From Gammaproteobacteria bacterium (GTDB lineage Bacteria; Pseudomonadota; Gammaproteobacteria; Eutrophobiales; Eutrophobiaceae), in NCBI GenBank assembly GCA_046757565.1, contig JBHHYN010000004.1:4086-68085 (forward strand): a DNA stretch of 64,000 bases. Direction: 5' to 3'. The notes under the pieces are model-generated. The model saw nothing but the letters and a program-made list of their open reading frames with translations, had not been told where the DNA came from and searched no databases. Below, one piece after another: positions 629 through 52,662 of this stretch (the stretch's first letter is position 1; the number at the start of each line of letters is the position of its first letter). Both the position numbers and the translations under genes were made by a program.

Positions 629-1203
629 AATTCTATGCTAGTAAAGAAATCTAGATATGTCAAGAATATTACTCTCCTGCCCTATGCGTATAGTTTCAAC
701 AACACCCTGGCCAAAAAAGCTTTTCTATTAGCCTGTCATTGCAAAACCTCATCGTATCGTAGCGAAGTGACGGGCCACGATGCGGGATCTCGACTGTATT
801 TACACCATGATGAGTCTGCATGAGCGAGACGTAGGCAGTCTCCTGGTTTGTGCTATGGGTAGTGGCGATGTGACCACGTAGAGGTAAACGACTGGCTCAT
901 CAAGGACACATAGAGAGAAAGCACTATAAAGACGTTCCGGTGGGGATGAATCCGCTCGACTGAGACCGTCGGGTGTATGGTGCAGTGCATCAGCCATGCG
1001 GATCATGGCTCACACTCGTCAGGGAAATGATAGGTTAACTGTCATTTCCCCGATTCGGCTCCCCTTCCAGCCTGTCAATGATATTCTGATGGCCTGGACC
1101 TGTGATGGGGTCGAATTAATGAAACAGAAGCCGCTATTATGTAAATCCGGTTTGTCTTCCTCCAGACGCCACTGGCAGTGAAACCCGATATTGTTTCATT
1201 CCA

Positions 1204-1902
1204 TTAAAGCCTGAATGATTCCAGTTCCATGGTATAGTTGCCGTTGATTGTATTCGGCGAAGCGGTTTCCTGCCTGACGCTTTTAACCAGGCCTGTCCCC
1301 GGTGCATACCAATCAGTGTGCTCCACCCTGATTGTCCTGACTCCTGCAAACAGCTTAAGCGCCCGTTTTGTATTAAGGTGGCCGCGCCCTTCGATGCGGA
1401 CACAGTGCAGAAAAATACCGGCAGGGACCTCCACCGTTTCATTGATAGCTTCAATCCTGTACTCCAGTTGTACCGGTCCTGTGGTGGCCCAGATCTCAGC
1501 CCTGTTCTGACCGGGTATTTCCAAAAAAGAAATTCTGGAACTGCCTTTCCATTTTGTCCCGACCTGCAAGGGATAGCGCAAAACCTGCATTCCCGTGTCT
1601 TCCAATGAACGCAGGCGCACAATACCATTATTGGATTTGGTATATAGCTCTATTGAGCCGCTGGCCGATTTTCTAGGGAACACGGTAATTCCGTTAATTT
1701 CTCTGGGCGGCAGTGTTGCAACAACGTATTTCTGTGTAAGTTGTTTGCTATCCACAGTACGGGTGATTGTATATTCCCACCAGGCATGATTGCCCAAGGG
1801 AAAATAATCCTGATGATGTTTACTACAGCCGTACAGTAGAAACAGAAGGGGCAGTAAGGCCACCTTCAGGTTCCGGATATTGTTTACTTTGCGTTCATTC
1901 AA
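1204..1902 (-). CDS. hypothetical lipoprotein (signal peptide with lipobox LLYGC)
   Basis: 232-aa ORF. The N-terminus MNERKVNNIRNLKVALLPLLFLLYGCSK carries a lipobox. Its start overlaps the stop of the upstream CPBP gene by 4 nt. The listed start is a TTG. Confidence 0.6.
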   Translation of the reverse strand: MNERKVNNIRNLKVALLPLLFLLYGCSKHHQDYFPLGNHAWWEYTITRTVDSKQLTQKYVVATLPPREINGITVFPRKSASGSIELYTKSNNGIVRLRSLEDTGMQVLRYPLQVGTKWKGSSRISFLEIPGQNRAEIWATTGPVQLEYRIEAINETVEVPAGIFLHCVRIEGRGHLNTKRALKLFAGVRTIRVEHTDWYAPGTGLVKSVRQETASPNTINGNYTMELESFRL

Positions 1903-2822
1903 CTACCGTCCAGCTCCCGAATTTTGTTCTGTTCATGATTATTTGAGCCAGGCTGTATTTGTTTGAACGCAACGACGTAGTAGAAAATGACCGCCACACA
2001 CAACCAGATGGATGCCAGATACCCCGTAGTATGATCGTAATTGTTCACCAGATAGCCAAAGCTGCTGCCGGGCCGGTAATCAGACAAATAAGAGGTAATC
2101 TTGTATGCACAGACAATGCCGGCATGGAGACCGATGCATTGTGTTATGTTGCCCGTTCTCCAGCGCACCATGCCGAGCAATATTCCGAGTATAAACAAGG
2201 TAATAAAGGAATCCACCGTCACCGGATCGCTGAATCTGTGTAGTCCGTTAACAAGTATCCACAGGCCGGTAAACCAGCCAACATCTGTGTTGGCAGGAAG
2301 GGCCGGGTACTTGATAAAGTGAACGGCTGCATAAACCAGAGAGGAAAGTAGCAAGGCCGCCGTTATATTGATTTGTCTGGCAAGGCCGCTAAATATGGCG
2401 CCACGAAAAATGGTTTCCTCTATTAAACCGACGACGAAGCCGCTTAGCAGCGCCTTTAGTGCAATTATCAAAAACGGAACCAGGCCGGCGCCCATATCCG
2501 GATCAGGCAGGCGCATACCCAAAACATACAGGCTGGCTTCTATGACTACCAGGATCAGTGCGCCTGCGGCAAATGCGGAAAGGAGTCCAGGTAACCAATC
2601 GCCGCGCCTGACATTGAACCCCAGGGCCGCAAGAGAGAGATGGCTTAATTTCAGGTATAAAACGCCAAACAGCAGTCCGCAGAACACGGTTGTGTGGGAA
2701 ACCAGCTTGTAAAACCTGATCTCGAAGAACGGCGACAACAGCAGATACACGGGATAGGAAAGCAATGCTCCCGTGAATAGCACGGTCACAACGATAAGGG
2801 AGAAAAGGAGTAAAGGGCGCAA
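1899..2822 (-). CDS. CPBP family (CAAX protease / Abi) intramembrane metalloprotease
   Basis: 307-aa multi-TM protein with the EExxxR-type motif LIEETIFRGAIFSGL and downstream conserved His residues (AAVHFIKYP), typical of the CPBP/Abi family. Confidence 0.8.
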   Translation of the reverse strand: MRPLLLFSLIVVTVLFTGALLSYPVYLLLSPFFEIRFYKLVSHTTVFCGLLFGVLYLKLSHLSLAALGFNVRRGDWLPGLLSAFAAGALILVVIEASLYVLGMRLPDPDMGAGLVPFLIIALKALLSGFVVGLIEETIFRGAIFSGLARQINITAALLLSSLVYAAVHFIKYPALPANTDVGWFTGLWILVNGLHRFSDPVTVDSFITLFILGILLGMVRWRTGNITQCIGLHAGIVCAYKITSYLSDYRPGSSFGYLVNNYDHTTGYLASIWLCVAVIFYYVVAFKQIQPGSNNHEQNKIRELDGS

Positions 2823-2852
2823 TGGAGATCGTAGAACGTCAGTGTCCCGTGG

Positions 2853-3167
2853 TCATTGTATTACTGCCTCCGCCGCGTCCGTATTACCTTTGTTATCCGA
2901 CCAGTTTATACGAATCATATCGCCCGGTTTGGCCCCTGAAAACTTAAATGAAAGGTAAGGATTTTTGGAAACAGCGCGGCCCCAGTTACACCGTAACACC
3001 ACGTCATCGCCGTGCCGGCAGATTACCTCCTTGATAAAATGGGCCGGGACCAGTTCGCCCGTTTCCCTGCTCCGGACAAGGCCGGTTTCCATCGGGTGCC
3101 TGATAATGGACCTGACTGTGGTCGTCCCGTTATGGTAATCCGTTCTGATCCGGATGCTGGACGTCAT
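2853..3167 (-). CDS. soxZ: thiosulfate oxidation carrier protein SoxZ
   Basis: 104 aa; ...HPMETGLVRSRETGELVPAHFIKEV...GRAVSKNPYLSFKF... matches SoxZ family signatures. Immediately downstream of soxY. Confidence 0.85.
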   Translation of the reverse strand: MTSSIRIRTDYHNGTTTVRSIIRHPMETGLVRSRETGELVPAHFIKEVICRHGDDVVLRCNWGRAVSKNPYLSFKFSGAKPGDMIRINWSDNKGNTDAAEAVIQ

Positions 3168-3207
3168 AACCTGGTTGAGAGTGAAGTGTAATCATATTCA
3201 TGCTGTT

Positions 3208-3660
3208 TCAGCCACAGCCTCCTTCGACAACTTTAACGAACTTTCTCGCCGAATAGACTCCCTCTTCCGACCGGACAATGGCGATAATATCTGAAGGCTC
3301 AGCTACTTTTATCCTGGTTGCGACAAAACCGGTACATTCCGGACTCAGTTCAAAGTCAGCAACCAGGGGATTGGGATTCTTTTCGACCAGTATGGTAATC
3401 GATTGAACGGCCGGGATATCGGTGGTAATCCTGATGGGAACAACTGCGCCGTTTTCAACAAGGTCATTGACGCTGATTGTTATCGAATCGCTTGGCGTTA
3501 TCTGTTTGCCCGGAAAGAACGCGGACAGGGCTTCATGTTCCGTCTTCGCCGCAAAGGCGCCTGCATTCCAGCCGGCCCTGACGGAAAATGGCTTGAGCAA
3601 AGCAGTAACGCCGATAAATCCCACAAGTTTCCTGAGTAGTGTTCTGCGGCTGATGTTCAT
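3208..3660 (-). CDS. soxY: thiosulfate oxidation carrier protein SoxY (Tat signal; C-terminus ...VVEGGCG)
   Basis: 150 aa with a twin-arginine signal (SRRTLLRKLVGF...A) and a C-terminal Cys-bearing tail GGCG followed by stop. Adjacent to soxZ. Confidence 0.85.
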   Translation of the reverse strand: MNISRRTLLRKLVGFIGVTALLKPFSVRAGWNAGAFAAKTEHEALSAFFPGKQITPSDSITISVNDLVENGAVVPIRITTDIPAVQSITILVEKNPNPLVADFELSPECTGFVATRIKVAEPSDIIAIVRSEEGVYSARKFVKVVEGGCG

Positions 3661-3700
3661 CCGTCAAAGACAAAATGGCGAGGTAGATGTTTTTTTGATG

Positions 3701-5224
3701 TTACTTGATTAATTTAAGATCTTTCTCGATCTGGAGTTCCTGTTCCAAAAAGGCAATTCTGTCATGGAGGCGCTCCTCCTGAAAGTAATCGGGTTTTGGG
3801 TTTCGTTGCCGCAGAATATATTTTAATTGTTGAATGGCAACTCTTGTCTCCCCGGATAAATAGTAGTACTCAGCACTGGCTATACCCGACTCAATAGTAT
3901 TCCCCGACTCGGCCTCTGCACGGGTCAGAAAATCATAATAAGTCAGATCCTGGTCATGAAACTTTCCGTATCTCTTCAGCAGTTCACGGGCCTGTTGAGG
4001 GTGATCAGCCTGCAACAGCGCCTCGGTGTAGGCAAGGACCACCGGACGATAATCCGGATAAAGCTTTATGGCCTGTTCATAGATTCTAAACGCCTGCTGA
4101 TAGTTGTTTTGGCGGGTTTGTAAATCGGCAGCGGCCAGCAGGTAGGAGGTATTCTCCCCATCCTCTGCCAGTAACTCCTGTAACTGATTGTACGCCTGCC
4201 TGTATCTTCCTGCTTCCATGAGGGCAAGGGCATAGCCATAATGAAGAGGGGCATAATTGTTACCGTACTGCTCGTCTTCCAGTTTCTGTTTGAAAAAGTC
4301 AACAGCGTGCCGGGGATCCTTCTCCGACATGGCCACAATTTTGGCTTGCATGAACGCAAACTTCTTGCTCTCGTTATACCGTAGATCAGGGGGATAGGCT
4401 TCCGCCCTGGCGCGGCTGTCTGCAATCCGGTTGGTAGTGAGCGGATGCGTACGCAAGAACTCGGGCGCCTTACCGGCATAGCGGGAGTTTTTCTGCAGCT
4501 TTTCAAAGAAACTTGGCATGCCACGTGGGTTAAAACCGGACCTTGCCAGTAATTGCATGCCGATCCGATCAGATTCCGCTTCGTTAGAACGGGTAAAGTT
4601 AATCCGGGTCTGGGCGGCCACCCCTTGTACAGCAGCCATGGCAGCCTGCCCGGCCTGGGGATTCTGGGAGGCGATAAGGATAGCGCCCAGCAGTGCCGCC
4701 ATCATGGGCAAACTCATCTTTGATTGCTTTTCGAAGGAACGCGCCATGTGCTTTTGTGTAACGTGTGAGATTTCATGGGCCATCACTGCCGCCAATTCAC
4801 TTTCATTTCCTGCATTCAGGATCACACCGCTGTTTATGCCGACAATGCCTCCCGGGGCGGCAAAGGCATTAATTATCGGATCGTCAATTACAAAGAACGT
4901 AAACAGTTGGGTATTGTTGTCGCTACTCGATACCAGACGGTAACCGATGGATTGAATATAGGTCTCTATCTCCGGATCAGTAATAATCTTTGCCTGTTTG
5001 CGTACCTGGCTGAGAAACGCCTGGCCCAGGCGGCGTTCAAATTCCGGCGACATCAGTGTGCCGGTAGAGTCACCGATATTGGGAAGATCCAGGGTCGTGA
5101 CGGCACTCGCCGTCGCCGTCAACAAAACAAGACTCAACAGTAAATATCTAATGAACGGCAACGCTGAAATTCTCCCGTATATTCTACTCTTGTGAGTCCG
5201 ATAGCATACCCAAGTTCCTGTCAC
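3701..5224 (-). CDS. bepA: M48 metalloprotease with TPR repeats, BepA (YfgC) family
   Basis: HEISHVTQKH zinc motif, signal-peptide-like LLLSLVLLTATASA, C-terminal TPR-like repeats. The true start may be an internal start codon. Confidence 0.85.
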   Translation of the reverse strand: MTGTWVCYRTHKSRIYGRISALPFIRYLLLSLVLLTATASAVTTLDLPNIGDSTGTLMSPEFERRLGQAFLSQVRKQAKIITDPEIETYIQSIGYRLVSSSDNNTQLFTFFVIDDPIINAFAAPGGIVGINSGVILNAGNESELAAVMAHEISHVTQKHMARSFEKQSKMSLPMMAALLGAILIASQNPQAGQAAMAAVQGVAAQTRINFTRSNEAESDRIGMQLLARSGFNPRGMPSFFEKLQKNSRYAGKAPEFLRTHPLTTNRIADSRARAEAYPPDLRYNESKKFAFMQAKIVAMSEKDPRHAVDFFKQKLEDEQYGNNYAPLHYGYALALMEAGRYRQAYNQLQELLAEDGENTSYLLAAADLQTRQNNYQQAFRIYEQAIKLYPDYRPVVLAYTEALLQADHPQQARELLKRYGKFHDQDLTYYDFLTRAEAESGNTIESGIASAEYYYLSGETRVAIQQLKYILRQRNPKPDYFQEERLHDRIAFLEQELQIEKDLKLIK

Positions 5225-5347
5225 TCTCAGATCGGCATTAGCTAATCAGGAGTTCACTGAAATTACCTGGATGCAATTTATCTAAATTTCTACAACAATA
5301 ATAGGCATTATTTAAGTAAATAATGTGAAATTCAGGAGTGATTTATC

Positions 5348-6613
5348 ATGGCACAAGGTAAAAACGCATTTTATGCCCAGTCCGGCGGCGTGACGGCGGT
5401 CATTAACGCTTCTGCCTGCGGCCTCATCCAGGCCGCCCGCGAGAACAGGGACAAAATCGCCAATGTCTATGCCGGGCGCAACGGCATTATCGGCGCCCTG
5501 ACCGAAGACCTTATCGACACAGGCCAGGAGAGTGATGAGGCGATTGCCGGCTTGCGTTACACGCCCTCCGGCGCCTTCGGCTCCTGCCGCTACAAGCTCA
5601 AGGGCCTGGAAGAGAACCACGCTGAATACGAGCGTCTGATCGAGGTCTTCAAGGCCCATGATATCGGCTACTTCTTCTATAACGGCGGCGGGGATTCCGC
5701 CGATACCTGCCACAAGATCTCCCAGCTATCCGGGAGTTTGGATTTTCCCATCCAGACGATACATATCCCCAAGACAGTGGATAATGATCTGCCGATCACC
5801 GATACCTGTCCGGGTTTCGGATCAGTGGCAAAATATATCGCCGTCTCTACCCGGGAGGCCTCCTATGACGTGCGCTCCATGGCCAGGACCTCCACGAAAG
5901 TGTTTGTGCTCGAGGTAATGGGCCGCCATGCCGGCTGGATCGCCGCTGCCGGGGGTCTGGCGGCCGACGAGCAGAATGATATCCCGATTGTTGTGCTGTT
6001 TCCTGAGATCCAATTTGATAAACAGCAGTTCCTGGCACGCGTGAAACAGAATGTTGAGCAATACGAATACTGCACGGTAGTTGTATCGGAAGGGGCGAAG
6101 TGGCCCGATGGCGGCTTTCTGGCGGAGCAGGACAGCCGCGACGCCTTCGGGCATGCCCAGCTTGGAGGCGCTGCGCCGGTGGTTGCCAATATGGTAAAAA
6201 GCGCCCTGGGTTACAAATACCACTGGGCCGTGGCCGACTACCTGCAGCGCTCCGCCCGTCATGTCGCCTCCAGGACCGACGTGGAGCAGGCCTATGCCGC
6301 CGGCAGGGCGGCGGTGGAGTATGCCGTTGCCGGAGAAGATGCCCGGATGGTGACGATTGTACGTACAGCGGACGATCCTTATGCCTGGGAGATCGGCCAG
6401 GTGGACCTGGCCGAGGTAGCTAATGTGGAGAAATTCATGCCGGCGGATTTCATTACTGAAGACGGTTTCGGCATCACGGATAGCTGCCGCCGCTACCTGC
6501 AGCCACTGATCCAGGGAGAGGATTATCCACCCTACGCCAACGGCCTGCCGGCCTATGTCCAGCTGAAGGGTGTGGCGGTACCGAAAAAACTGACTGCTCG
6601 TTTTGCCGTCTGA
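5348..6613 (+). CDS. pfp: pyrophosphate-dependent 6-phosphofructokinase (PPi-PFK)
   Basis: 421 aa; GGGDSADT (GGDGS-like) and PKTVDNDL motifs; length and sequence resemble Methylococcus-type PPi-PFK. Confidence 0.85.
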   Translation: MAQGKNAFYAQSGGVTAVINASACGLIQAARENRDKIANVYAGRNGIIGALTEDLIDTGQESDEAIAGLRYTPSGAFGSCRYKLKGLEENHAEYERLIEVFKAHDIGYFFYNGGGDSADTCHKISQLSGSLDFPIQTIHIPKTVDNDLPITDTCPGFGSVAKYIAVSTREASYDVRSMARTSTKVFVLEVMGRHAGWIAAAGGLAADEQNDIPIVVLFPEIQFDKQQFLARVKQNVEQYEYCTVVVSEGAKWPDGGFLAEQDSRDAFGHAQLGGAAPVVANMVKSALGYKYHWAVADYLQRSARHVASRTDVEQAYAAGRAAVEYAVAGEDARMVTIVRTADDPYAWEIGQVDLAEVANVEKFMPADFITEDGFGITDSCRRYLQPLIQGEDYPPYANGLPAYVQLKGVAVPKKLTARFAV

Positions 6614-6787: not shown

Positions 6788-8812
6788 ATGTCGCCTATAT
6801 TTTTTGCCTTGCTTTGCGGCGTTCTGGCAATCGTGTACGGTATCTGGTCCATTCGCTGGATACTGTCGCAACAGCAAGGCAATGAGCGTATGCGTGAGAT
6901 CGCCGCTGCCATCCAGCAAGGGGCTGCTGCATATCTCAACAGGCAATACACGACCGTTGCCATGGTTGGTGTTGTGGTGTTTCTCGTGCTGGGGCTGTCG
7001 CCCATTGGCTGGAAGACCGCAATCGGTTTTTTAATTGGCGCTATCTTTTCCGGCGCCACCGGTTATATCGGCATGAATATCTCTGTGCGCGCCAATCTGC
7101 GCACGGCCGAGGTCGCAAACAACGGGATGAATGCGGCCTTGACCGTGGCCTTTCGAGGCGGCGCCATTACCGGTCTGCTGGTCGTCGGTCTGGGCCTGCT
7201 GGGTGTGGCCGGTTACTATGCAATCCTTGGTATGACGGGGGCCGGCGATAATCTATCACCACTGGTGGGGCTTGCCTTCGGAGGTTCATTGATCTCCATT
7301 TTTGCCCGGCTCGGCGGCGGGATCTTTACCAAGGGCGCTGATGTGGGCGCCGATCTGGTGGGCAAGGTTGAAGCCGGTATCCCGGAAGACGACCCACGCA
7401 ATCCAGCAGTCATCGCCGATAACGTTGGCGATAATGTCGGTGACTGCGCCGGTATGGCTGCAGACCTTTTCGAGACCTATGTGGTAACGGTTGTCGCTAC
7501 CATATTGCTCGGCAGCCTCATTGTTAAACCAGCAGAGAGTGCAGTGGTCTATCCGCTGGTTTTAGGGGGGATCTCTATTGTCGCTTCGGTAATTGGCACC
7601 TTTTTCGTCAAGGCCAGGGAAGGGGGCAGTATCATGGGAGCGCTCTACCGTGGTCTGATCGTCGCCGGGGTCCTTGCCGTGATCGCATTTTATCCCGCCA
7701 CGAACCTGCTGCTGGGCGACACCATCAACATAGACGGCGCAGATGTGCTGACACGGTATGTCTACTATGCTGCCCTGATCGGACTTGCCCTGACGGGTGC
7801 GTTGGTCTGGATCACTGAATACTACACCAGCACCGAGTTTTCACCTGTCAGGCACATCGCCCAGGCCTCTGAAACCGGCCATGCCACCAACATTATCGCC
7901 GGTCTCGGGGTCTCCATGAAGGCCACGGCCCTGCCCGTGCTGGCGGTCTGTGCCAGTATCTGGGGCGCTTATGAACTGGCCGGTCTGTATGGCATCGCCA
8001 TCGCGGCCACCTCCATGCTCTCCATGACCGGCATTATTGTGGCGTTGGACGCTTTCGGTCCGATTACTGACAACGCCGGCGGCATCGCCGAAATGGCGGA
8101 ATTGCCGGAGAAGATACGCAATATTACCGACCCGCTGGATGCGGTAGGGAATACCACCAAGGCGGTCACCAAGGGTTACGCCATCGGATCGGCCGGCCTG
8201 GCGGCACTGGTGCTGTTCGCCGACTATACCCATGCGCTGGAACATAACCAGATATCGGTGGAATTCAGCCTTTCCGATCCGTTGGTCATCATCGGCCTGT
8301 TTCTCGGTGGCCTGGTGCCCTATCTGTTCGGCGCCATGGCAATGGAGGCGGTGGGCCGCGCCGCCGGATCAGTGGTGCATGAGGTACGCCGGCAGTTCAG
8401 GGAGATCGAAGGCATCATGGAGGGCAAAACCAAACCCGATTATACACGCGCCGTGGATATGCTGACAAAAGCCGCGATCAAGGAGATGATCTTCCCGTCA
8501 CTGCTGCCGGTACTGGTGCCGGTGCTGGTAGGTATCATCCTCGGCCCCAAGGCGCTGGGCGGCTTACTGGTAGGGACTATCATTACCGGTCTGTTCGTCG
8601 CTATCTCCATGACCACCGGTGGCGGGGCCTGGGATAATGCAAAAAAATATATTGAAGACGGCGCCCTTGGCGGTAAGGGCAGTGAGGCGCACAAGGCGGC
8701 TATCACCGGCGACACAGTGGGCGATCCCTACAAGGATACCGCCGGCCCTGCTGTCAATCCGTTGATCAAGATCATCAATATCGTCGCCCTGCTGATCGTG
8801 CCTTTGATCTAA
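6788..8812 (+). CDS. hppA: membrane-bound proton-translocating pyrophosphatase (H+-PPase)
   Basis: 674 aa polytopic membrane protein with [22 protein letters not shown] and DNAGGIAEM motifs typical of V-type PPases; RBS agggggaatatt precedes the ATG. Confidence 0.9.
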
Positions 8813-18178: not shown

Positions 18179-18225
18179 AGGTTTGCTATCTAATAGCATG
18201 CATGCTGAATGCATCCACAGGGCAA

Positions 18226-18915
18226 ATGAAAGAAAAGATACTCATCGTTGAAGATGAGGCGGCAATCCGGGAAATGCTTGGGTATACGCTGATGAAGGAG
18301 GGCTTTTCATTCCAGGAGGCTGCTGATGTGGAACAGGCCCGCCCACTCATAACTGCGCGGAAACCTGATCTGATCCTGCTTGACTGGATGCTTCCCGGTA
18401 TGAGTGGAATCGATTATGCCCGCCGCCTGCGCAGTGATCCGGAAACCAGCAGCATCCCGGTTATCATATTGACAGCGAAAGGGGAGGAGGCTGACAAGGT
18501 GCGTGGCCTCGACAGCGGCGCCGATGATTATATCACCAAGCCCTTCTCAACCCGGGAATTACTGGCGCGTATCAAGGCCGTGCTCAGACGCACGGGCAAT
18601 AGCGAACAAACCGGTATTGTAACGGTTGCCGACCTGACACTGGATCCGGAGTCATACCGGGTCATGGTGCGGGACCAACATATCGACATCAGTCCCACTG
18701 AATTCCGGCTGTTACATTTTTTTATTTCTCACCCGGAACGGGTTTACAGCCGCGCCCAGTTGCTGGATCAGGTGTGGGGACAGAATGTCTATGTGGAAGA
18801 ACGTACGGTGGATGTGCATATCAGGCGCTTGCGCCAGACGCTGGCGCCGTTTGCTTACGATAAATTCATACAAACAGTCCGTAGTGTAGGCTACCGGTTT
18901 TCAGTTCACGGATAA
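18226..18915 (+). CDS. phoB: phosphate regulon response regulator PhoB
   Basis: Start moved to MKEKILIVEDEAAIREML (229 aa). OmpR-family receiver plus winged-helix domain; followed directly by phoR. Confidence 0.9.
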   Translation: MKEKILIVEDEAAIREMLGYTLMKEGFSFQEAADVEQARPLITARKPDLILLDWMLPGMSGIDYARRLRSDPETSSIPVIILTAKGEEADKVRGLDSGADDYITKPFSTRELLARIKAVLRRTGNSEQTGIVTVADLTLDPESYRVMVRDQHIDISPTEFRLLHFFISHPERVYSRAQLLDQVWGQNVYVEERTVDVHIRRLRQTLAPFAYDKFIQTVRSVGYRFSVHG

Positions 18916-18919
18916 CATT

Positions 18920-20236
18920 ATGAAAGAGGATTTTTGGCGATTTTCAGGCGTCATCATTCTTTCCGCATTGGCGGGCACCGTAACCGGACAAGTCACTGCC
19001 TGTCTGCTGGCCGGTGTGGTACTTTTTGTTTTCTGGCAATACCGGACCCTGAGGCGATTGTTGTTGTGGCTACAGCGCAGGGGGGAAAACGATCCGCCCG
19101 AAACTCCGGGCATCATTGATGAAATCTGCCGCGAAATTGACTCTATGCGGGTGCGGCATAAAAAGCGCAAAGCCAAATTATCCGGTTTTCTGAACCGTTT
19201 TCAGGACTCGACCGCCGCCCTGCCGGATGCCATTGTCATACTGGGAATGGGGAGTGAGATAGAGTGGGCGAACAACAAGGCACAGGATTATCTCGGGGTG
19301 AATTGGCCCCAGGATGCGAGACAACGTATCTCCAACCTGATCCGCCATCCTGAGCTGATGAACTACATCGGTAACGAGAGTCGCTACAACTCCGGCCAGA
19401 GTCTGCAACTGTCATCACCGGTTAACAACGGGCTGGAACTCGAACTCAGGGTGGTCCCCTATGGTAAAAAGCAGAAACTGCTGGTAGCCAGGGACATTAC
19501 AAAAATACACCGTATCAACCGGATGCGCAAAGACTTTATTGCCAATGCCTCCCATGAGTTACGTACACCTCTGACCGTTATTGCCGGGTACCTGGAGGGA
19601 CTTGACAGTGAAGAGTGTCCGCCTGGCTGGAGGCCGCAGATAGAACAGATGCGCCGGCAGACTGAGCGTATGCAGAGACTGATTGAAGATCTGCTGATGC
19701 TGTCTTCGCTGGAATCGGATGTCGCACAGCAGGAGAAAGAGGTAGTAGCCGTTCCGGAAATGCTCTCAACGATCTATCAGGAGGCCCAATCCCTGAGTGG
19801 CATAATGGGGCATATATTTTATCTGGAAACCGATGCGGATCTCCGCGTAAAGGGCTACCAGCGCGAGTTGTATAGTGCCTTCTCCAACCTGGTTTTCAAT
19901 GCGGTGCAGCATACCCCCGAGAAGGGGATCATTCGTATCAAATGGTATAGAGAGGGAAACAATGCCTGTCTTGAGGTTATCGACACAGGAGCGGGTATCG
20001 GTGCAGAACACATACCCAGGTTAACGGAACGTTTCTACCGCGTCGATAAAGGACGCTCCCGGGACAAGGGTGGCACAGGGCTTGGGCTGGCCATCGTTAA
20101 ACACGCCCTGGTACGGCATGGCGCCAGCCTGCAGATTCATAGCCAACCGGGCAAGGGGAGTACGTTTCGCTGTGAATTCCCTGAACTGCTAATCATCACC
20201 AAACCAGTGGAGGATGCAGCAAGCCTGCCGGCCTGA
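18920..20236 (+). CDS. phoR: phosphate regulon sensor histidine kinase PhoR
   Basis: 438 aa; N-terminal TM segment, PAS region, H-box FIANASHELRTPLTVI, and N/G boxes. Confidence 0.9.
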   Translation: MKEDFWRFSGVIILSALAGTVTGQVTACLLAGVVLFVFWQYRTLRRLLLWLQRRGENDPPETPGIIDEICREIDSMRVRHKKRKAKLSGFLNRFQDSTAALPDAIVILGMGSEIEWANNKAQDYLGVNWPQDARQRISNLIRHPELMNYIGNESRYNSGQSLQLSSPVNNGLELELRVVPYGKKQKLLVARDITKIHRINRMRKDFIANASHELRTPLTVIAGYLEGLDSEECPPGWRPQIEQMRRQTERMQRLIEDLLMLSSLESDVAQQEKEVVAVPEMLSTIYQEAQSLSGIMGHIFYLETDADLRVKGYQRELYSAFSNLVFNAVQHTPEKGIIRIKWYREGNNACLEVIDTGAGIGAEHIPRLTERFYRVDKGRSRDKGGTGLGLAIVKHALVRHGASLQIHSQPGKGSTFRCEFPELLIITKPVEDAASLPA

Positions 20237-20279
20237 ACCGCCTCTTTTAGGGCACATCGAAAAACGCCCTTTAATTAAA

Positions 20280-20319
20280 CTGTCATAATCTCTTCATTAG
20301 CCTGTCATTAACACTTGCC
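20280..20319 (+). promoter_or_regulatory. tandem Pho boxes upstream of pstS
   Basis: CTGTCAT-aatc-TCTTCAT-tagc-CTGTCAT-taac-ACTTGCC, a canonical PhoB-binding array about 80 nt upstream of pstS. Confidence 0.7.
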
Positions 20320-20395
20320 AGAATCTGCCTTCAGCAGGGTTTACTGATCAACCGTAAGTCCGGTTATCCCACTATCAATTAATGGAGAATGAGAA

Positions 20396-21394
20396 ATGCC
20401 TAAACAGATAATTTTTACGACGAGTATTTTACTTGTTTCCCTGCTGCCGGCTGCAGTCATGGCGGACAGCGGCGGGCTTGACCCCATGCTGGCGGCATAC
20501 ACCAAGTCCAGCGGTGTTTCCGGCAATATTATCAGTGTCGGCTCGGATACCCTGGCCAATGTAATGACCGAGTGGGCAGAAGCATTTAAAAAACTTTATC
20601 CCAATGTCAACATACAGATCCAGGCAGCCGGGTCATCCACGGCGCCGCCGGCCTTGACCGAAGGAACCTCCAATTTTGGCCCCATGAGCCGCAAGATGAA
20701 GGACCGGGAGCTGGCCGCCTTTGAGAAAAAATACGGTTATAAGCCGACCCCTGTCCGGGTAGCCATCGATGCCCTCGCTGTCTACGTCAACAAGGACAAC
20801 CCCATCCAGGGACTGACCATTCCCCAGGTCGATGCAATTTTTTCCGCAACACGCAAATGCGGTTATGGTAAAGATATCAACACCTGGGGACAACTTGGTC
20901 TCAGCGGCGCCTGGGCGCACCGACCCATACAAATCTATGGGCGAAACTCTGTCTCCGGGACCTATGGATACTTCAAGAAACATGCCTTGTGTAAGGGGGA
21001 TTACCGGAATAGTGTCAACGAACAGCCCGGTTCCGCCTCGGTGGTCCAGGGCGTGACCAAGTCCATCAACGGTATCGGTTATTCCGGCATCGGCTACAAA
21101 ACCTCCGGGGTACGTGCCTTGCCACTGACAAAGAAGCCCGGCCACGCATTCATCGCGGCAACAACGGCTAATGCCATCAATGGCCGCTATCCACTGGCCC
21201 GTTTCCTGTATATATACGTGAATAAGGCCCCGAATAAACCCCTGTCACCGCTTGAGCGCGAGTTCATCAAGATGGTCCTCTCCAGGGTGGGACAGACAGT
21301 GGTCATAAAGGACGGCTATATCTCCTTGCCCTCCAAGATAGTGAACAAGGAGCTGGCCAGGGTTTCGGTCGACCTGGCCAGCAATAGAAAATGA
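20396..21394 (+). CDS. pstS: phosphate ABC transporter substrate-binding protein PstS
   Basis: 332 aa with signal peptide and PstS/PBP-family sequence ([18 protein letters not shown]...). Confidence 0.85.
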
Positions 21395-21565
21395 ACAACA
21401 GGTGGGCAAGCACTAGAGATTTTTGGTTGGTTTTTTTAACTTTTATTATCTCTGTGACCTCTGTGCCCCTGTGGTTAATCAGAAATTTAAAATAAACCCC
21501 AAACAGTAAAAAAATAAAGCCCCTCTAGACTCTTGCAACCCCCCTCCTTCCTGCTTGAGTCCTTC

Positions 21566-21592
21566 CGGCCCCGCAATAGCGGGGCTTTTTTC
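21566..21592 (+). terminator. rho-independent terminator after pstS
   Basis: gccccgc-aata-gcggggc stem followed by tttttt. Confidence 0.6.
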
Positions 21593-21654
21593 TCCTGCAG
21601 GTTAATTATCTGTGAAGTAATAATATTGTCACATTTAAGCCCTACACTACCCGC

Positions 21655-23937
21655 ATGTCTGATGCCGATACATCGCTCGCCGCTATCATCCCGGCTTTTA
21701 ATTCCCCTGCTGCAGCGCGTTTCCGGAGCTGGCGTCATATCAGGGACATCGCCACCCGGCACCTGATGACCATTGGCGGCGTCAGCATTATTATTGCGAT
21801 CGTCCTGATTGCCTTTTATCTGTTCTACGTCGTACTGCCGATGTTCCGGCCCGCTCACATGCAACAACTGGGGGAGTATCCATTACCCGGCAATGCACAG
21901 GCTGGCACCCTGCTCTATGCCATGGAGGAACAGCATGAGATTGGCCTGCGCCTGAGCGCGGACGGACGCGCCGTTTTTTTCAGGACGAAAGATGGCCAGG
22001 TGTATGAAAAAGCAGACGGGTCAATTACCATGCCGGCCGCCATCACCGCCTTTGCCAGCGGTGACCCCGCGCAGAGGATTATTGCCCTCGGCTTCGCCGA
22101 CGGCACGGCAAAACTCATCCGGCATAATTACGCGGTATCCTATCCGGATGATGTACGGGTCATCACCCCCCGCCTTGACTACCCGTTCGGCGGGCAGCCC
22201 ATAGCAATCGACCCTGCAGGCAACAGTCTGGCGTTGATCAGCGCCCAGGCGGATGCGGAGCAGGCCACCATTGCCGCACTGACGGCTGATGGGCGTTTGC
22301 TCCTTGTCAACCTGCAGAGGGAAGAGTCCCTGCTCGAGGATGAGGTCACTTTAAACCGGACCGAAACCCGAATTCCCTCACCTGACAACCACATCAGTCA
22401 TCTGGTCCTCGATGTAGAACAGCGTGACCTGTACCTGGCAGACGAGAACGGATTCATCAGCTACCTGGATATCAGTGACAAGGCGAAACCGAGGCTAATA
22501 CAGCGGGTCAAGGCGGTGCCGGACGCTGTACACATCACCAGCCTCAAGTTCTTGAGTGGCGGGATTTCCATCCTGGTGGGTGATTCCCGCGGCACGGTGA
22601 CACAGTGGTTTCCGGTCAGGGACGCAGACAATAATTATACCCTTGAGAACATCCGTCATTTTGATGACCAGAATGCCCCAATCAACGCCATTGCCCCGGA
22701 ATACAACCGCAAGGGATTTCTTGCCATCGGCGAAGATGGGTCCCTGGGTATTTATCACACCACGGCCCATCGCACCGTGCTGCTGAGACAGATCAGCCCT
22801 GACAGTCTCTCCGCCATCGCTATCGCCCCACGCGCCAATGCGGCCCTGATAGAAGCTGCTGGCCGGCAACTGCAATTCTGGCGCATCGATAATGAATACC
22901 CCGAAGTCTCGTGGCAATCCCTGTGGGGGAAGGTCTGGTATGAAAGCCGGGATAAACCCGAGTATATCTGGCAATCGTCATCGGCGAGCAGTGACTTCGA
23001 GCCCAAGTTCAGCCTGACTCCACTGGCCTTTGGCACCCTGAAGGCCGCCTTCTATGCCATGCTGTTTGCCGTGCCTCTGGCGCTCATGGGTGCCATCTAT
23101 ACCGCCTATTTCATGTCGACGCCGATGCGCAGTTTTGTGAAGCCGACTATTGAAATTATGGCGGCGCTGCCGACCGTGATTCTGGGCTTTATCGCCGGAC
23201 TCTGGTTTGCGCCGTACGTGGAGCACCATCTGGCAGGCATATTACTGTTGCTTATCCTGATACCATTGGCGACGCTTGCCGCGGCATGGCTCTGGCGGCA
23301 ACTCCCGGCCGGGATGCAACATATCATTCCTAAAGGCTGGGAGGCAGCGCTACTGATACCGGTCATTCTCGTTGCCACTTTCATATCCATCTGGATTGGT
23401 CAATACCTCGAAACCCTGTTCTTCGGAGGCCACCTGCCCCTCTGGCTGACCCATGATATGGGGATCGATTATGATCAGCGCAACTCCCTCATTGTGGGCA
23501 TTGCCATCGCTTTCGCCGTCATACCGACCATCTTTTCCATCAGTGAAGACGCCATTTTCAGCGTTCCCAAACACCTGACCTCCGGTTCCCTGGCTTTGGG
23601 CGCCACTCCATGGCAGACCATGGTGCGGGTCGTCTTACTGACGGCGAGCCCGGGGATTTTTTCTGCCGTGATGATTGGGATGGGCCGGGCCATCGGCGAG
23701 ACCATGATCGTGGTGATGGCAACGGGCAACACCGCCATTATGGATATGAATATTTTCGAGGGGTTTCGCGCCCTGTCCGCCAATATCGCCGTGGAGATAC
23801 CGGAAGCCGAAGTGGGCAGCAGCCATTATCGTATTCTGTTCCTGGCAGCACTGGTACTGTTTCTCGCTACTTTTCTGTTCAATACCCTGGCGGAAGTGGT
23901 CCGGCAACGCCTGCGCACCCGATACAGCAACTTGTAA
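21655..23937 (+). CDS. pstC: phosphate ABC transporter permease PstC, long form with an N-terminal TM helix and a periplasmic beta-propeller-like domain
   Basis: 760 aa; the C-terminal 300 aa is a PstC permease core. Residues 60-440 contain repeated xDGxhhhh blade-like motifs (ADGRAVFF, ADGTAKLI, ADGRLLLV, DENGFISY, DSRGTVTQW, EDGSLGIY). Confidence 0.85.
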   Translation: MSDADTSLAAIIPAFNSPAAARFRSWRHIRDIATRHLMTIGGVSIIIAIVLIAFYLFYVVLPMFRPAHMQQLGEYPLPGNAQAGTLLYAMEEQHEIGLRLSADGRAVFFRTKDGQVYEKADGSITMPAAITAFASGDPAQRIIALGFADGTAKLIRHNYAVSYPDDVRVITPRLDYPFGGQPIAIDPAGNSLALISAQADAEQATIAALTADGRLLLVNLQREESLLEDEVTLNRTETRIPSPDNHISHLVLDVEQRDLYLADENGFISYLDISDKAKPRLIQRVKAVPDAVHITSLKFLSGGISILVGDSRGTVTQWFPVRDADNNYTLENIRHFDDQNAPINAIAPEYNRKGFLAIGEDGSLGIYHTTAHRTVLLRQISPDSLSAIAIAPRANAALIEAAGRQLQFWRIDNEYPEVSWQSLWGKVWYESRDKPEYIWQSSSASSDFEPKFSLTPLAFGTLKAAFYAMLFAVPLALMGAIYTAYFMSTPMRSFVKPTIEIMAALPTVILGFIAGLWFAPYVEHHLAGILLLLILIPLATLAAAWLWRQLPAGMQHIIPKGWEAALLIPVILVATFISIWIGQYLETLFFGGHLPLWLTHDMGIDYDQRNSLIVGIAIAFAVIPTIFSISEDAIFSVPKHLTSGSLALGATPWQTMVRVVLLTASPGIFSAVMIGMGRAIGETMIVVMATGNTAIMDMNIFEGFRALSANIAVEIPEAEVGSSHYRILFLAALVLFLATFLFNTLAEVVRQRLRTRYSNL

Positions 23938-25598
23938 TGGGCGGGAACATCAAGACCTGGATCGACAGCGGTGAGCCCTATATCTGGCTCAATGCCGGGG
24001 CAGTCAGTATATCGATCCTGCTTGTGACCGGTCTGGTGGGCATGATCACAGTGCGCGGGCTCGTTCATTTCTGGCCGGCGGCCGTGGTTGCACTCGACTA
24101 TACCGGGCAGGACGGTTCGATCACGCCTATTATCGGGGAATTGGTGGAGCATGAGCGAACAACCCTGGATCACCCTGGTCAGCAAAAAGGGCTAACCACA
24201 GGATCGCTTGTCGGCCGCTATCTGGTTAAAACCGGCAACCGAGATCTCTCCGGACTGGATTTCCGATGGGTTGATGAGACCGGCATGGGGAAACTGCAAC
24301 ATCCGGATAATGTGATGGTAGTTGAGCGCAGGGAATGGGGTAATTTTTACGGTTATCTGCACGAAATCAGGGAAAACGGGCAGGCCGTCAACCCGGAGAG
24401 TGGCCTGTGGCACACCTTTCAGACACAGATCCGGCGCAGTGGATCCCTGTTTGACCGGATCAGGCATACCGAGAAGGACCTGATCGGTAACATTAACTAC
24501 CGGATGGAACATCTGCGCCTGCAACAACGGGGCCTGACACTGCAGGGAATTTCCGATCCGGTCCGGATGAAGGCCATCAGCCGGCAACGCCGGCAGTTAC
24601 AACTGAAATATGATGGTTATACACAACAACTTGCCCGGCTCTACCGGCAACTCAACAGCGTTACTGTCATCGCCACCCAGGCCGATGGCAAGGAAGTCAC
24701 TATCCCCTTGTCCAAGGTAGTTCGCGCCTATCGTCCGAACCGGATGAGTATGCTGGAGAAGACGGCATTTTACTTTACGAAGTTGTGGGAATTCATTGCA
24801 GCCGAACCGCGGGAATCCAACACCGAAGGCGGCATCTTCCCGGCCATCTTCGGGACGGTCATAATGGTCATGATTATGGCAATCATGGTCACTCCGTTTG
24901 GAGTGATCGCTGCCATCTATCTACATGAGTATGCCCGGCAAGGGCCCTTGACCCGGTTAATCCGGATCGCCGTCAATAACCTCGCCGGGGTGCCATCTAT
25001 CGTCTATGGTGTGTTCGGGCTGGGTTTTTTCGTCTATTTCCTCGGCGGTCATATCGATCAGCTATTTTTCCCCGAGGCCCTGCCCACCCCCACCTTCGGC
25101 ACACCGGGCCTGCTCTGGGCATCCGTCACCCTGGCGCTGCTCACTGTCCCCGTTGTCATCGTAGCGACGGAAGAGGGCCTGTCCCGGGTCCCGCAGAACA
25201 TACGGGAAGGCAGCCTGGCCCTGGGTGCGACCAAGGCCGAGACCTTATGGTTAACCGTGTTGCCGATGACAGCCCCTGCCATGATAACGGGCTTGATACT
25301 GGCAATTGCCAGGGCAGCCGGAGAGGTCGCGCCCCTGATGTTGGTCGGTGTTGTCAAGCTTGCGCCGTCACTACCCCTGGATAGCAATTATCCGTTTCTG
25401 CATCTGGACAGAAAATTCATGCATCTGGGATTTCATATCTATGACGCAGGGTTTCAGAGCCCCAATGTTGAGGCAGCCAGGCCACTGGTCTACTCCACGG
25501 CCCTGCTGTTGATCGCCATTATTATCATTTTAAACCTGACAGCTATCAGGATTCGTAATAGGCTTAGGGAGAAATATCGTGCAGCAGAGCAATATTAG
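23937..25598 (+). CDS. pstA: phosphate ABC transporter permease PstA, long form
   Basis: ATG at 23937 overlaps the pstC stop (TAATG). 554 aa with an N-terminal periplasmic extension and a C-terminal PstA core. Confidence 0.85.
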
Positions 25599-26493
25599 CA
25601 ATTTCGCGGAACTAAACGACAAATTTTCTGATGAACCGGAAACCATGCCGGAAACGGAGATAAGCACCACCACACCCACTCATGCGATGCATAGGGGGAC
25701 GCTGGTGCAACCAGAGAACAACCCCAGGCTTGCCGATGAGTCCATATGTATCCAGGTGCAGGATTTAAATCTTCACTATGCGGATAATCATGCCCTTAAA
25801 AATATCAGCATGGCTATCCCTGAACGGCGGGTCACGGCATTTATCGGCCCCAGCGGCTGCGGCAAGTCATCCCTGCTGCGCTGTTTCAATCGTATGAATG
25901 ACCTGATCGAGGGCGTACGCATCGATGGTGCAATCCACCTGCACGGTAACGATATCAATGATAAATCAGTCAATGTGGCGGAATTGCGCAGGCGTGTCGG
26001 CATGGTCTTTCAGAAACCCAACCCGTTTCCCAAATCGATTTATGAGAATGTAGCTTATGGGCTGCGCATCCAGGGCATTAAAAAACGCCGCATACTGGAT
26101 GCCGTCGTTGAAAAGTCGTTAAAACGGGCAGCCTTGTGGAATGAGGTCAAAGATCGACTGCATGTTAATGCCCTGGGGCTTTCCGGCGGGCAGCAGCAAA
26201 GGCTGGTCATCGCACGGGCAATCGCCATTGAACCGGAAGTCTTGTTGCTTGATGAACCGGCATCGTCACTGGATCCGATATCCACCCTGAAGATCGAAGA
26301 ACTGATTTATGAATTGAAATCGGATTACACCATCATCATCGTCACCCATAATATGCAACAGGCAGCGAGGGTTTCCGATTACACCGCCTATATATATCTG
26401 GGCGAGATGATCGAACACGATAACACCAATACCCTGTTCACCAATCCGGCGCAGAAGATTACCGAAGACTATATCACCGGCCGTTATGGATAA
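25579..26493 (+). CDS. pstB: phosphate ABC transporter ATP-binding protein PstB
   Basis: Walker [13 protein letters not shown] signature LSGGQQQRL, Walker B LLLDEP. The N-terminal extension may mean the true start is internal. Confidence 0.9.
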
Positions 26494-26582
26494 CATCAAC
26501 CGGCATTGCCTGTTCTGCGTACAGTCTAATAACCCGTAGCCTGGATATCGGGTTTTGTAGAGATGTTTCAGGAGCCAACATT

Positions 26583-27296
26583 ATGAGCGCGAGTCAACTA
26601 TCAAGACACATTTCCCGGCAATTCGACAATGAGTTGGAGAATATCCGTAACCAGGTGCTGTTGATGGGGGGCTTAATTGAGCAGCAATTGAGCGATGCCA
26701 TCAAGTCAATGACGGACTCCGATATGGAACTGGCGGAATCCGTAATCAGGAATGAGTTTGAGGTCAATCGATACGATGTCTCAATCGACGAAGAGTGTAC
26801 CCGGATCCTGGCCAGACGCCAGCCTGCCGCCGGTGACTTGCGTCTGATTATGGCCATCATCAAGACCATCACCGATCTGGAGCGGATCGGTGATGAGGCG
26901 GAAAAGGTCGCCAAAATGGCCATCGATCTCTCTGAAAAACAGGGACCAAGGTCGTATTATGTAGGGATTAACGCCATGGGTAATCATGTGTTAAAGATGC
27001 TGCATGACGCCCTGGATGCCTTCGCCCGCATGGACTCAGAGGCGGCCCTGGAGGTGGTGAGAAAAGAACCGGAATCCGATGAACAATACAGCGCCATACT
27101 CCGGCAATTGATCACCTATATGATGGAAGATCCGAGAAACATCACCAGCGCCATGGATGCGGTATGGACCGCTCGGGCCATGGAGCGGATCGGGGACCAT
27201 GTCCGCAACCTTTGCGAATATGTGATCTTTTTTGTTGAAGGCAAGGATGTGCGCCACATCAGCGTTGAAGAGATGGAAAAAAAAGTGCTGGGATAA
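26583..27296 (+). CDS. phoU: phosphate-specific transport system accessory protein PhoU
   Basis: 237 aa with duplicated PhoU domains (LERIGDEAEKVA / MERIGDHVRNLCE). Confidence 0.9.
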   Translation: MSASQLSRHISRQFDNELENIRNQVLLMGGLIEQQLSDAIKSMTDSDMELAESVIRNEFEVNRYDVSIDEECTRILARRQPAAGDLRLIMAIIKTITDLERIGDEAEKVAKMAIDLSEKQGPRSYYVGINAMGNHVLKMLHDALDAFARMDSEAALEVVRKEPESDEQYSAILRQLITYMMEDPRNITSAMDAVWTARAMERIGDHVRNLCEYVIFFVEGKDVRHISVEEMEKKVLG

Positions 27297-27457
27297 GACA
27301 GACTTTATCATGGAAAAACAGGTGGTTGCCTTGACCTTGATAGATTAAAGCCTGGTAAATTTCCGTATTTATTGATCTCCATCAATGACCGCTGCCTGAT
27401 TGTGTGATAAGGAAGCTCTGATTATTCATTCTGTTAGCTAAGAGTAACCGGTATTTA

Positions 27458-52451: not shown

Positions 52452-52662
52452 TGCATATTGATGGGCATCAACCGTGGTGCCGTTACAGACTTTTAACCTG
52501 AACCATGGGTTCAAGTGGGAACAGCGGGCGACGTTTCAGGCTCCCCACCAAAGCGGGTCTGCACAACAACATCGCGGTTTAGTCCCCTGGCAAACAAAGA
52601 TAGGCTCAAGTTTATGCCAGCCTGACCACGAACACCACAGAAGATACCCGAACCTTATGCCG
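52452..52662 (-). ncRNA. ssrS: 6S RNA (SsrS) candidate
   Basis: 52493-52545 resembles the E. coli 6S 3'-bubble hairpin and 3' arm (CCUUGAACCAAGGGUUCAAGG...ACAGC...GCGGCGG). It lies immediately downstream of zapA on the same strand, as in the conserved zapA-ssrS arrangement. A long closing helix can only form on the minus strand because it needs G·U pairs: 5' GGGUAUC-UU-CUGUGGUGUU (52650-52631) pairs with 3' GGCACCACGG-UU-GAUGCCC (52481-52463). The ends are approximate. Confidence 0.55.

Follow-up and report, generated by a model that had tools for sequence, protein, structure and literature searches.

In a 64,000 nt stretch of a gammaproteobacterial genome (contig JBHHYN010000004.1; "the window" hereafter means this whole stretch at its full length), the sulfur-carrier genes soxY and soxZ stand in one row with genes for an intramembrane protease of the CPBP (CAAX-type) family and for a lipoprotein, and the question raised by this locus is whether the protease serves the carrier protein, as had been proposed in a first-pass annotation which linked it to the cysteine tail of SoxY. 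Based on a comparison with about 165 related loci (designated by L numbers), the most plausible answer, to which a probability of roughly 0.7 is assigned, is that soxYZ constitutes a standalone carrier module, which through common descent has an envelope protease as its neighbour that is maintained independently of it, and that there is no system for processing the SoxY tail. A dedicated role of the CPBP protein in SoxY processing is not supported, because the genes were inherited as block neighbours and lost independently of one another. The proposed link to the cysteine tail is thus not supported, as the short tail is ordinary, the linkage partial and the losses independent both ways.

The locus comprises five co-directional genes on the minus strand, which sit 1.2 kb from the window edge, together with two genes on the plus strand that serve as synteny anchors:

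5224..3701, minus strand: bepA-like gene for a periplasmic M48/TPR metalloprotease, 507 aa
3660..3208, minus strand: soxY, sulfur-carrier protein, 150 aa
3167..2853, minus strand: soxZ, partner subunit, 104 aa, start 40 nt past the soxY stop
2822..1899, minus strand: gene for a CPBP/Rce1-like glutamic intramembrane protease, 307 aa, TTG start
1902..1204, minus strand: lipoprotein gene, 232 aa, TTG start
5348..6613, plus strand: gene for a pyrophosphate (PPi)-dependent phosphofructokinase (PPi-PFK; NF010675, 642 bits), divergent from the bepA-like gene, synteny anchor
6788..8812, plus strand: gene for an H+-translocating pyrophosphatase (H+-PPase), synteny anchor

All components of the row belong to known families. 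The four genes from soxY to the lipoprotein gene are open reading frames (ORFs) on the minus strand just as first annotated, with gaps of 40 nt between soxY and soxZ and of 30 nt between soxZ and the CPBP gene, and with a 4 nt overlap (TTGA) of the CPBP stop and the lipoprotein start. The co-oriented bepA-like gene (3701..5224), which ends 40 nt upstream of soxY, had been overlooked, and the junction spacing read from the sequence along the complete row is 40, 40, 30 and −4 nt. That no soxXAB or soxCD genes are nearby is likewise true within the 64 kb window, where a CxxCH haem motif is absent from all 63 ORFs with a length of 80 aa or more and where soxY and soxZ are present in one copy each, with no second soxY or soxZ.

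The row is part of a chromosomal block that recurs in related genomes. The CPBP protein has about 270 homologs. For the comparison, a CPBP-seeded set of 80 loci was obtained by an alignment-based scan with one genome per species and sorted by tblastn with the window proteins, and a SoxY-seeded set was derived from four long-contig look-ups plus a metagenome scan adding 80 loci, with duplicates removed. The recurrent backbone consists of H+-PPase and PPi-PFK followed, in divergent orientation, by the bepA-like gene, an optional soxYZ pair, an optional CPBP gene, an optional lipoprotein gene, and genes for Zn_ribbon_8, DUF502, AspRS (aspS) and NadA. The order PFK, BepA-SoxY-SoxZ-CPBP-ZnR-DUF502-AspRS recurs in both the CPBP-seeded and the SoxY-seeded loci, and in the lineage of the window the soxYZ pair has its place in this block, together with the CPBP gene and, in part of the lineage, the lipoprotein gene. 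PPi-PFK is kept at its position in nearly all related loci, and H+-PPase homologs with 76–84% identity are found at the same position (Pfam H_PPase in the L082 and L084 orthologs), the side-by-side pair being retained next to bepA in many of them. Such a pairing of PPi-PFK and H+-PPase is known from chemoautotrophic sulfur-oxidizing Gammaproteobacteria. All 45 determinable loci with a short-tail SoxY have the bepA-like gene directly upstream of it, an adjacency more constant than that of SoxZ and CPBP.

Within this block, soxYZ and the CPBP gene each occur with and without the other. Twelve loci of the CPBP-seeded set show PFK and, divergent from it, BepA-SoxY-SoxZ-CPBP; in nine, CPBP follows BepA directly and soxYZ is absent (L004, L009, L013, L016, L018, L019, L020, L021 and L022); and in about 55, a full-length CPBP ortholog (31–41% identity) is present with neither BepA nor soxYZ nearby. 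These other contexts, confirmed by Pfam, are all of a housekeeping kind and show no recurrent partner; the neighbours include MalQ and ArgH in Chromatium, trigger factor (Tig), ClpP, ClpX and an AcrB pump of the RND (resistance-nodulation-division) type in a Sedimenticola-like genome, and TraB/GumN, Lon-N and Mpl in Steroidobacteraceae. At least 64 loci that lack soxYZ thus have a CPBP ortholog whose catalytic residues are intact. In the other direction, three of the four long-contig look-ups seeded with SoxY gave BepA-SoxY-SoxZ without CPBP and one gave it with CPBP; overall, CPBP follows soxZ at 17–60 nt in 34 of 41 short-tail loci and is absent in seven (L081, L082, L084, L085, L091, L100 and L113). 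The metagenome-assembled genome (MAG) GCA_022614965 carries soxYZ on one contig (L084) and a CPBP homolog on another (L027).

When these states are mapped on a neighbour-joining tree of the BepA-like protein, the combination of soxYZ and CPBP is found to either side of the root, which makes it the probable ancestral state. On this tree, at least four to five losses of soxYZ left CPBP in place (L018; L004; L021; the clade of L013/16/19/20/22; L009), and at least three losses of CPBP left soxYZ in place (L084; the clade of L100/101/082/085; L081). L004, the sister of the window, is missing soxYZ at the locus and has kept both the CPBP gene and the lipoprotein gene. As a caution, a tight, co-oriented and fairly conserved gene row can represent inherited synteny and not a functional unit. 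With respect to the origin of the pair, the possibility that soxYZ is a compositionally foreign insertion was considered and rejected, as its G + C content and its G + C content at third codon positions (GC3) resemble those of the neighbours; the five genes are alike in G + C content (0.48–0.53).

The identity of the carrier genes is clear. SoxY matches PF13501 (E = 6.6e-29, 100.8 bits versus a cutoff of 28.4) and TIGR04488 (132.9 bits versus 125, with profile positions 1–148 of 149 matched), and SoxZ matches PF08770 (E = 2e-32) and TIGR04490 (118.3 bits versus 76). SoxY begins with a twin-arginine signal, as read from the sequence (SRRTLLRKL at residues 4–12, plus a hydrophobic stretch), and SoxZ has no signal peptide; SoxY would be exported by the twin-arginine translocation (Tat) pathway, carrying the signal-less SoxZ along. 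Sulfur adducts would be borne by the carrier residue Cys149 on a flexible GGCG arm, and the genes for the partner enzymes of SoxYZ would be located elsewhere in the genome. Split Sox systems, with soxYZ and soxXA(KL)B at separate loci, are known from gammaproteobacterial sulfur oxidizers such as Allochromatium vinosum. The window resembles them in that soxY and soxZ stand alone, soxXAB and soxCD being absent from its 64 kb, that SoxY has a Tat signal and SoxZ none, and that both proteins score above the NCBIfam equivalog cutoffs; it differs in the GGCG instead of GGCGG tail and in that the pair is always found downstream of a bepA-like gene in the PPi-PFK/H+-PPase block.

The proposal of a tail-directed protease had started from the end of SoxY, VVEGGCG followed by the stop codon, which is indeed one glycine short of the GGCGG that is the textbook motif of SoxY tails (PMC6067878). 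The GGC core with its cysteine is kept in the window protein, and the GGCG variant is widespread among SoxY proteins. In the 12 genome orthologs with the same gene arrangement the tail is GGCG in ten, GGCD in one and GGCA in one; GGCG is also the ending of 111 of the 120 closest SoxY homologs, which have identities of 52% or more, and GGCGG does not occur among them. A sequencing error or truncation as the source of the GGCG tail is ruled out by these counts, the short tail being present in all 12 genome orthologs and GGCG in 111 of the 120 homologs. In a broader sample of 150 diverse SoxY representatives drawn from 50%-identity clusters, the cysteine is followed by two residues in 95 (GGCGG in 70), by one residue in 34 (GGCG in 15; about 23% of the sample for the one-residue state) and by none in six. 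SoxY proteins with 45% identity or less have the tail VTLGGCGG and no BepA upstream.

The same holds for proteins of known structure. SoxY of the window matches the Protein Data Bank (PDB) entries 2nnc, 2oxg and 4uwq and, with E-values from 1e-11 to 2e-18, belongs by sequence to the same fold family as Thermus thermophilus SoxYZ (4uwq) and the SoxY proteins of Paracoccus and Chlorobium (2oxg, 2nnc), although identity to all three is low. The Thermus chain (4uwq_B), which could be aligned through its last residue, ends in GGCG according to the PDB chain sequence, identical to the end of the window protein, whereas the Paracoccus and Chlorobium chains are one residue longer at the tail and carry the canonical GGCGG (PMC6067878). 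That SoxY homologs commonly end in GGCG is what the first-pass annotation itself had named as speaking against its proposal. A tail of one residue is therefore a minority state but a common one, which marks a whole clade and is no peculiarity of the window gene, and the "missing glycine" is a normal trait of that clade. For annotators of sulfur-oxidizer genomes, this provides a defined subclade of one-residue-tail SoxY, always downstream of a bepA-like gene in the PPi-PFK/H+-PPase block. The SoxYZ of Thermus works with a standard Sox system, and no CPBP partner is known for it.

A side observation concerns the residues before the tail: among the SoxY C-termini of L081–L122, those with CPBP carry E, D, K or Q before [GN]GC-x (EGGCG, ENGCG), and those without CPBP mostly carry A or T before GGCG (AGGCG, TGGCG) or an extra residue (GGCGT, GGCGE). 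The residue preceding GGCG was considered as an independent line of evidence and dropped, as the A/T state is essentially one clade on the BepA tree.

The protease itself is assigned to the CPBP family by a score of 58.5 bits for PF02517 (cutoff 22.4). The EExxxR motif noted in the first-pass annotation (LIEETIFRG) is present with E135, E136 and R140, and these residues are invariant, together with H168 and H233, in all 101 CPBP orthologs examined, of which 35 adjoin soxYZ, nine are associated with BepA only and 57 are found elsewhere. The second motif is an invariant (Y164)xxxH168 where FxxxH would be expected. In Rce1, the third motif is HxxxN/D, with Asn or Asp four residues past the second histidine; in the window family this position is a near-invariant valine (V237). 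Within the BepA-linked clade, conservation extends to C229 and K241. Eight transmembrane helices are predicted, and the AlphaFold2 model (pLDDT 92.5, pTM 0.88) gave in a Foldseek search against the PDB only two confident matches, SpdC (6u0o) and MmRce1 (4cad), both with probability 1.00 and TM-scores of 0.47–0.59. With Rce1 of M. maripaludis and SpdC of S. aureus the window protein shares PF02517, the eight-helix fold, EExxxR and the two conserved histidines, but it differs from the former by V237 and from the latter, a non-catalytic scaffold, in that its family keeps the catalytic residues. Prenylated CAAX substrates are not known from bacteria. The TTG start is supported by homologs in more than 30 loci that align from residue 1; one gene caller starts the protein 11 codons later (296 aa), which would widen the soxZ-CPBP gap to 63 nt. 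The invariant residues point to a catalytically competent glutamic intramembrane protease, which belongs to a family conserved across Gammaproteobacteria and would act on a putative envelope or membrane substrate. Annotators thereby gain a conserved CPBP family in this class, catalytically intact as judged by its residues, as a putative protease.

If this protease were functionally coupled to the carrier, soxY-soxZ-CPBP would form a functional operon in which CPBP acts on the short-tail SoxY, for example by trimming the arm, by quality control, by removal of dead-end adducts, or by membrane tethering or maturation. There is precedent for CPBP enzymes acting at C-terminal signals that contain a cysteine, namely Rce1 and the myxosortases (PMC11980579); the latter (MrtX, MrtS and MrtJ) are CPBP proteases processing C-terminal sorting signals with an invariant cysteine (PMC11980579; bioRxiv 10.1101/2023.06.07.544157). 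The window is similar to the myxosortase systems in that a CPBP gene lies close to that of a protein with a key cysteine at its extreme C-terminus. However, SoxY ends one residue past the cysteine, with no transmembrane helix and no Arg-rich or other basic cluster beyond it, and hence offers no sorting signal as a substrate. The tripartite signal of cysteine motif, transmembrane helix and basic cluster is not present in SoxY, and the lipoprotein ends in ELESFRL. The CPBP protein also scores far below the cutoffs of the myxosortase-type NCBIfam models (MrtS 36.7 versus 130, MrtJ 34.5 versus 75, Mrt_core 18.3 versus 100). In addition, GGCG-tailed SoxY from Thermus has been crystallised (4uwq). 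The distribution of Lys and Arg in the loops (positive-inside rule) and the homology to MmRce1 suggest, with low weight, an N-in/C-in topology like that of Rce1; the catalytic cavity of CPBP would then face the cytoplasm, away from the mature, periplasmic SoxYZ.

Several observations nevertheless weigh in favour of coupling and against mere neighbourhood by descent. The SoxZ-CPBP adjacency, at 17–60 nt, is found in 23 of the 30 loci of the unbiased, SoxY-seeded subset of the overall count given above and is absent in seven, and these 23 span SoxY identities of 46–63%. Furthermore, the adjacency is exclusive to the short-tail clade, being seen in none of the 22 loci with a GGCGG tail and enough downstream sequence. 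Genomes that lack soxYZ at this locus might also carry soxYZ elsewhere. Lastly, relative rates, estimated from gap-free pairwise identities with PFK and BepA as clocks, show that CPBP has diverged about twice as fast against PFK and BepA in the soxYZ-less clade L016/19/20/22 (and L013) as in soxYZ-containing clades. In that clade dCPBP is 0.37–0.44 at a dPFK of about 0.09, compared with 0.16–0.30 in soxYZ-containing pairs of similar depth (dPFK about 0.09); at a dPFK of 0.026, the soxYZ-less pair L019 and L022 has a dBepA of 0.027 and a dCPBP of 0.139, and the soxYZ-containing pair L107 and L111 values of 0.033 and 0.070, respectively. This is the pattern expected of relaxed constraint after the loss of a partner, but as a signal from a single, unreplicated clade it is a weak hint; the fast clade keeps its catalytic residues, and L104, which contains soxYZ, is equally fast.

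Against these points stands the fact that soxYZ and CPBP were each lost repeatedly with the other kept, that the catalytic residues are invariant also in the at least 64 orthologs without adjacent soxYZ, and that neighbours in the block with no functional relation to each other keep their adjacency at least as well. The expectation of a conserved linkage in the first-pass annotation is thus borne out as far as the 23 of 30 loci go, and fails with the reciprocal losses. Literature searches that paired SoxY or soxYZ with CAAX or CPBP proteins gave no paper that links them, and a substring search gave only incidental co-occurrences. Functional coupling is accordingly regarded as unlikely. The related notion that the short-tail (GGC plus one residue) SoxY clade has co-evolved with CPBP, which would act on the carrier arm or on the maturation, turnover or membrane association of SoxYZ, is decidedly unlikely as well; in its favour are the clade-exclusive adjacency, the retention in 23 of 30 loci and the faster CPBP in one soxYZ-less clade. 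If coupling were real, CPBP would add a hitherto unrecognised accessory factor to the Sox pathway, a major pathway of the sulfur cycle, in marine and sediment gammaproteobacterial sulfur oxidizers.

A different possibility is an envelope-proteostasis operon into which soxYZ was inserted as a passenger; the bepA-like protease, CPBP and the lipoprotein would then cooperate in the biogenesis of the outer membrane or of lipoproteins. The bepA-like protein matches PF01435 (E = 2.5e-36) and TPR families (TPR_19) and, over its full length, the BepA model NF052400, with 440.6 bits at a cutoff of 570. It hence shares the M48 and TPR architecture of E. coli BepA (YfgC), which acts in the periplasm as an M48/TPR protease and chaperone during the assembly of outer-membrane proteins, but its score lies below the equivalog cutoff and its fixed place upstream of soxYZ is specific to the lineage of the window. 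The nine loci in which BepA and CPBP adjoin without soxYZ are in line with such an operon. So is the lipoprotein gene, whose start overlaps the CPBP stop by 4 nt and which stands after CPBP in eight loci, two of them without soxYZ. A CPBP-family protein, LnsB, has a part in lipoprotein N-acylation in S. aureus (PMC7387801). However, the more distant CPBP orthologs are not beside BepA (55 loci), lipoprotein homologs elsewhere are not beside CPBP, and the state with both soxYZ and CPBP, present in either half of the BepA tree, seems to be ancestral and not the result of an insertion. A common envelope operon is therefore thought very unlikely.

The signal of the lipoprotein consists of a K/R-rich n-region, a hydrophobic core and the lipobox LLYG-C26. 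The protein belongs to a family of 15 members, and Cys26 is kept in each of the 14 homologs whose sequence extends to the N-terminus. The start agrees with the NCBI annotation (hypothetical protein ACE5GZ_01140, 232 aa, 100% identity). A DUF3108-like profile (PF21347) matches weakly and below the cutoff (E = 2e-4), and the AlphaFold2 model (pLDDT 81.5) is an all-beta open barrel, whose best PDB match is an uncharacterised putative lipoprotein from Bacteroidetes (4fvs; E = 2e-5, TM-score 0.41); structural matches to LolA/LolB-like proteins are weak. The gene follows CPBP only in the subclade of the window (L001–L004, L008, L021 and L119), and homologs outside this subclade have other neighbours. 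It would therefore seem to be an add-on of one subclade, translationally coupled to CPBP.

The short junctions of the row would allow its co-transcription. A scan of positions 900–5500 for promoters and terminators returned four promoter-like and six terminator-like sites, which were not above shuffled sequences, lay in none of the junctions and are no guide to transcript boundaries, and the soxZ-CPBP and bepA-soxY junctions showed no RNA structure beyond shuffles (z-scores of −0.13 and +0.41). Because the junctions are without a terminator-like element or significant RNA structure, a read-through transcript from bepA through soxY, soxZ and CPBP to the lipoprotein gene is plausible; an internal soxYZ promoter is plausible as well. 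According to the preferred reading of a standalone carrier module, the CPBP and lipoprotein genes would be located beside soxYZ by common descent and would probably share read-through transcription with it.

As an alternative to a link with the SoxY tail, the first-pass annotation had considered that the CPBP-lipoprotein pair is an unrelated Abi-like module with a chance position beside soxYZ. As a defence module, the pair would be an accessory cassette for self-immunity or anti-phage defence which inserted there. The comparative data favour one half of this alternative, the unrelated adjacency, and not the other. It is true that many CPBP proteins of bacteria carry an annotation as Abi or bacteriocin self-immunity protein, and an accessory region may begin just past the lipoprotein gene, where an ORF of 875 aa with a P-loop has weak PADLOC matches. 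However, neither CPBP nor the lipoprotein matches PADLOC, no bacteriocin-like, peptide or toxin genes are adjacent, the G + C content of the CPBP gene matches that of its neighbours, and CPBP is a positionally conserved ortholog in housekeeping contexts of more than 100 genomes, which is not what would be expected of a mobile accessory gene. A defence or immunity function of the pair is thus considered extremely improbable.

The 875 aa ORF was recovered in full from a longer contig (L165:3249-5876), in which it is unrelated to the row and separated from the lipoprotein gene by a 575 nt gap; in the window it occupies positions 1–628 on the minus strand and runs off the edge. This P-loop ORF (GLGKSHTLL ... 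VIILDE) has no Pfam match; its weak PADLOC matches are HmaC (E = 6e-18) and DUF499 (E = 7e-14). A defence or accessory region may thus be present at the place at which relatives carry Zn-ribbon, DUF502 and aspS. Positions 1–1300 of the window have no DNA or translated similarity to any of the compared loci.

Some of the public MAG records that contain the block (L019 and L022, i.e. CAMDWI01 and CAMBTO01, as well as L006 and L008) are titled "Klebsiella pneumoniae", "Enterobacteriaceae" or "Planctomycetota"; given that their PFK and H+-PPase have 77–80% identity to those of the window, these titles look like taxonomic mislabels. In the whole 64 kb window, where no tRNA genes were found, the sole Rfam match is a 6S (SsrS) RNA at positions 52465–52646 on the minus strand (72.5 bits), far from the locus. 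Finally, positions 18202–31026, as judged by eye, appear to harbour a phosphate or polyphosphate cluster with PhoB/PhoR-like, PstS-like and PhoU-like ORFs, a polyphosphate kinase (27458–29533) and a Ppx/GppA protein (29530–31026).

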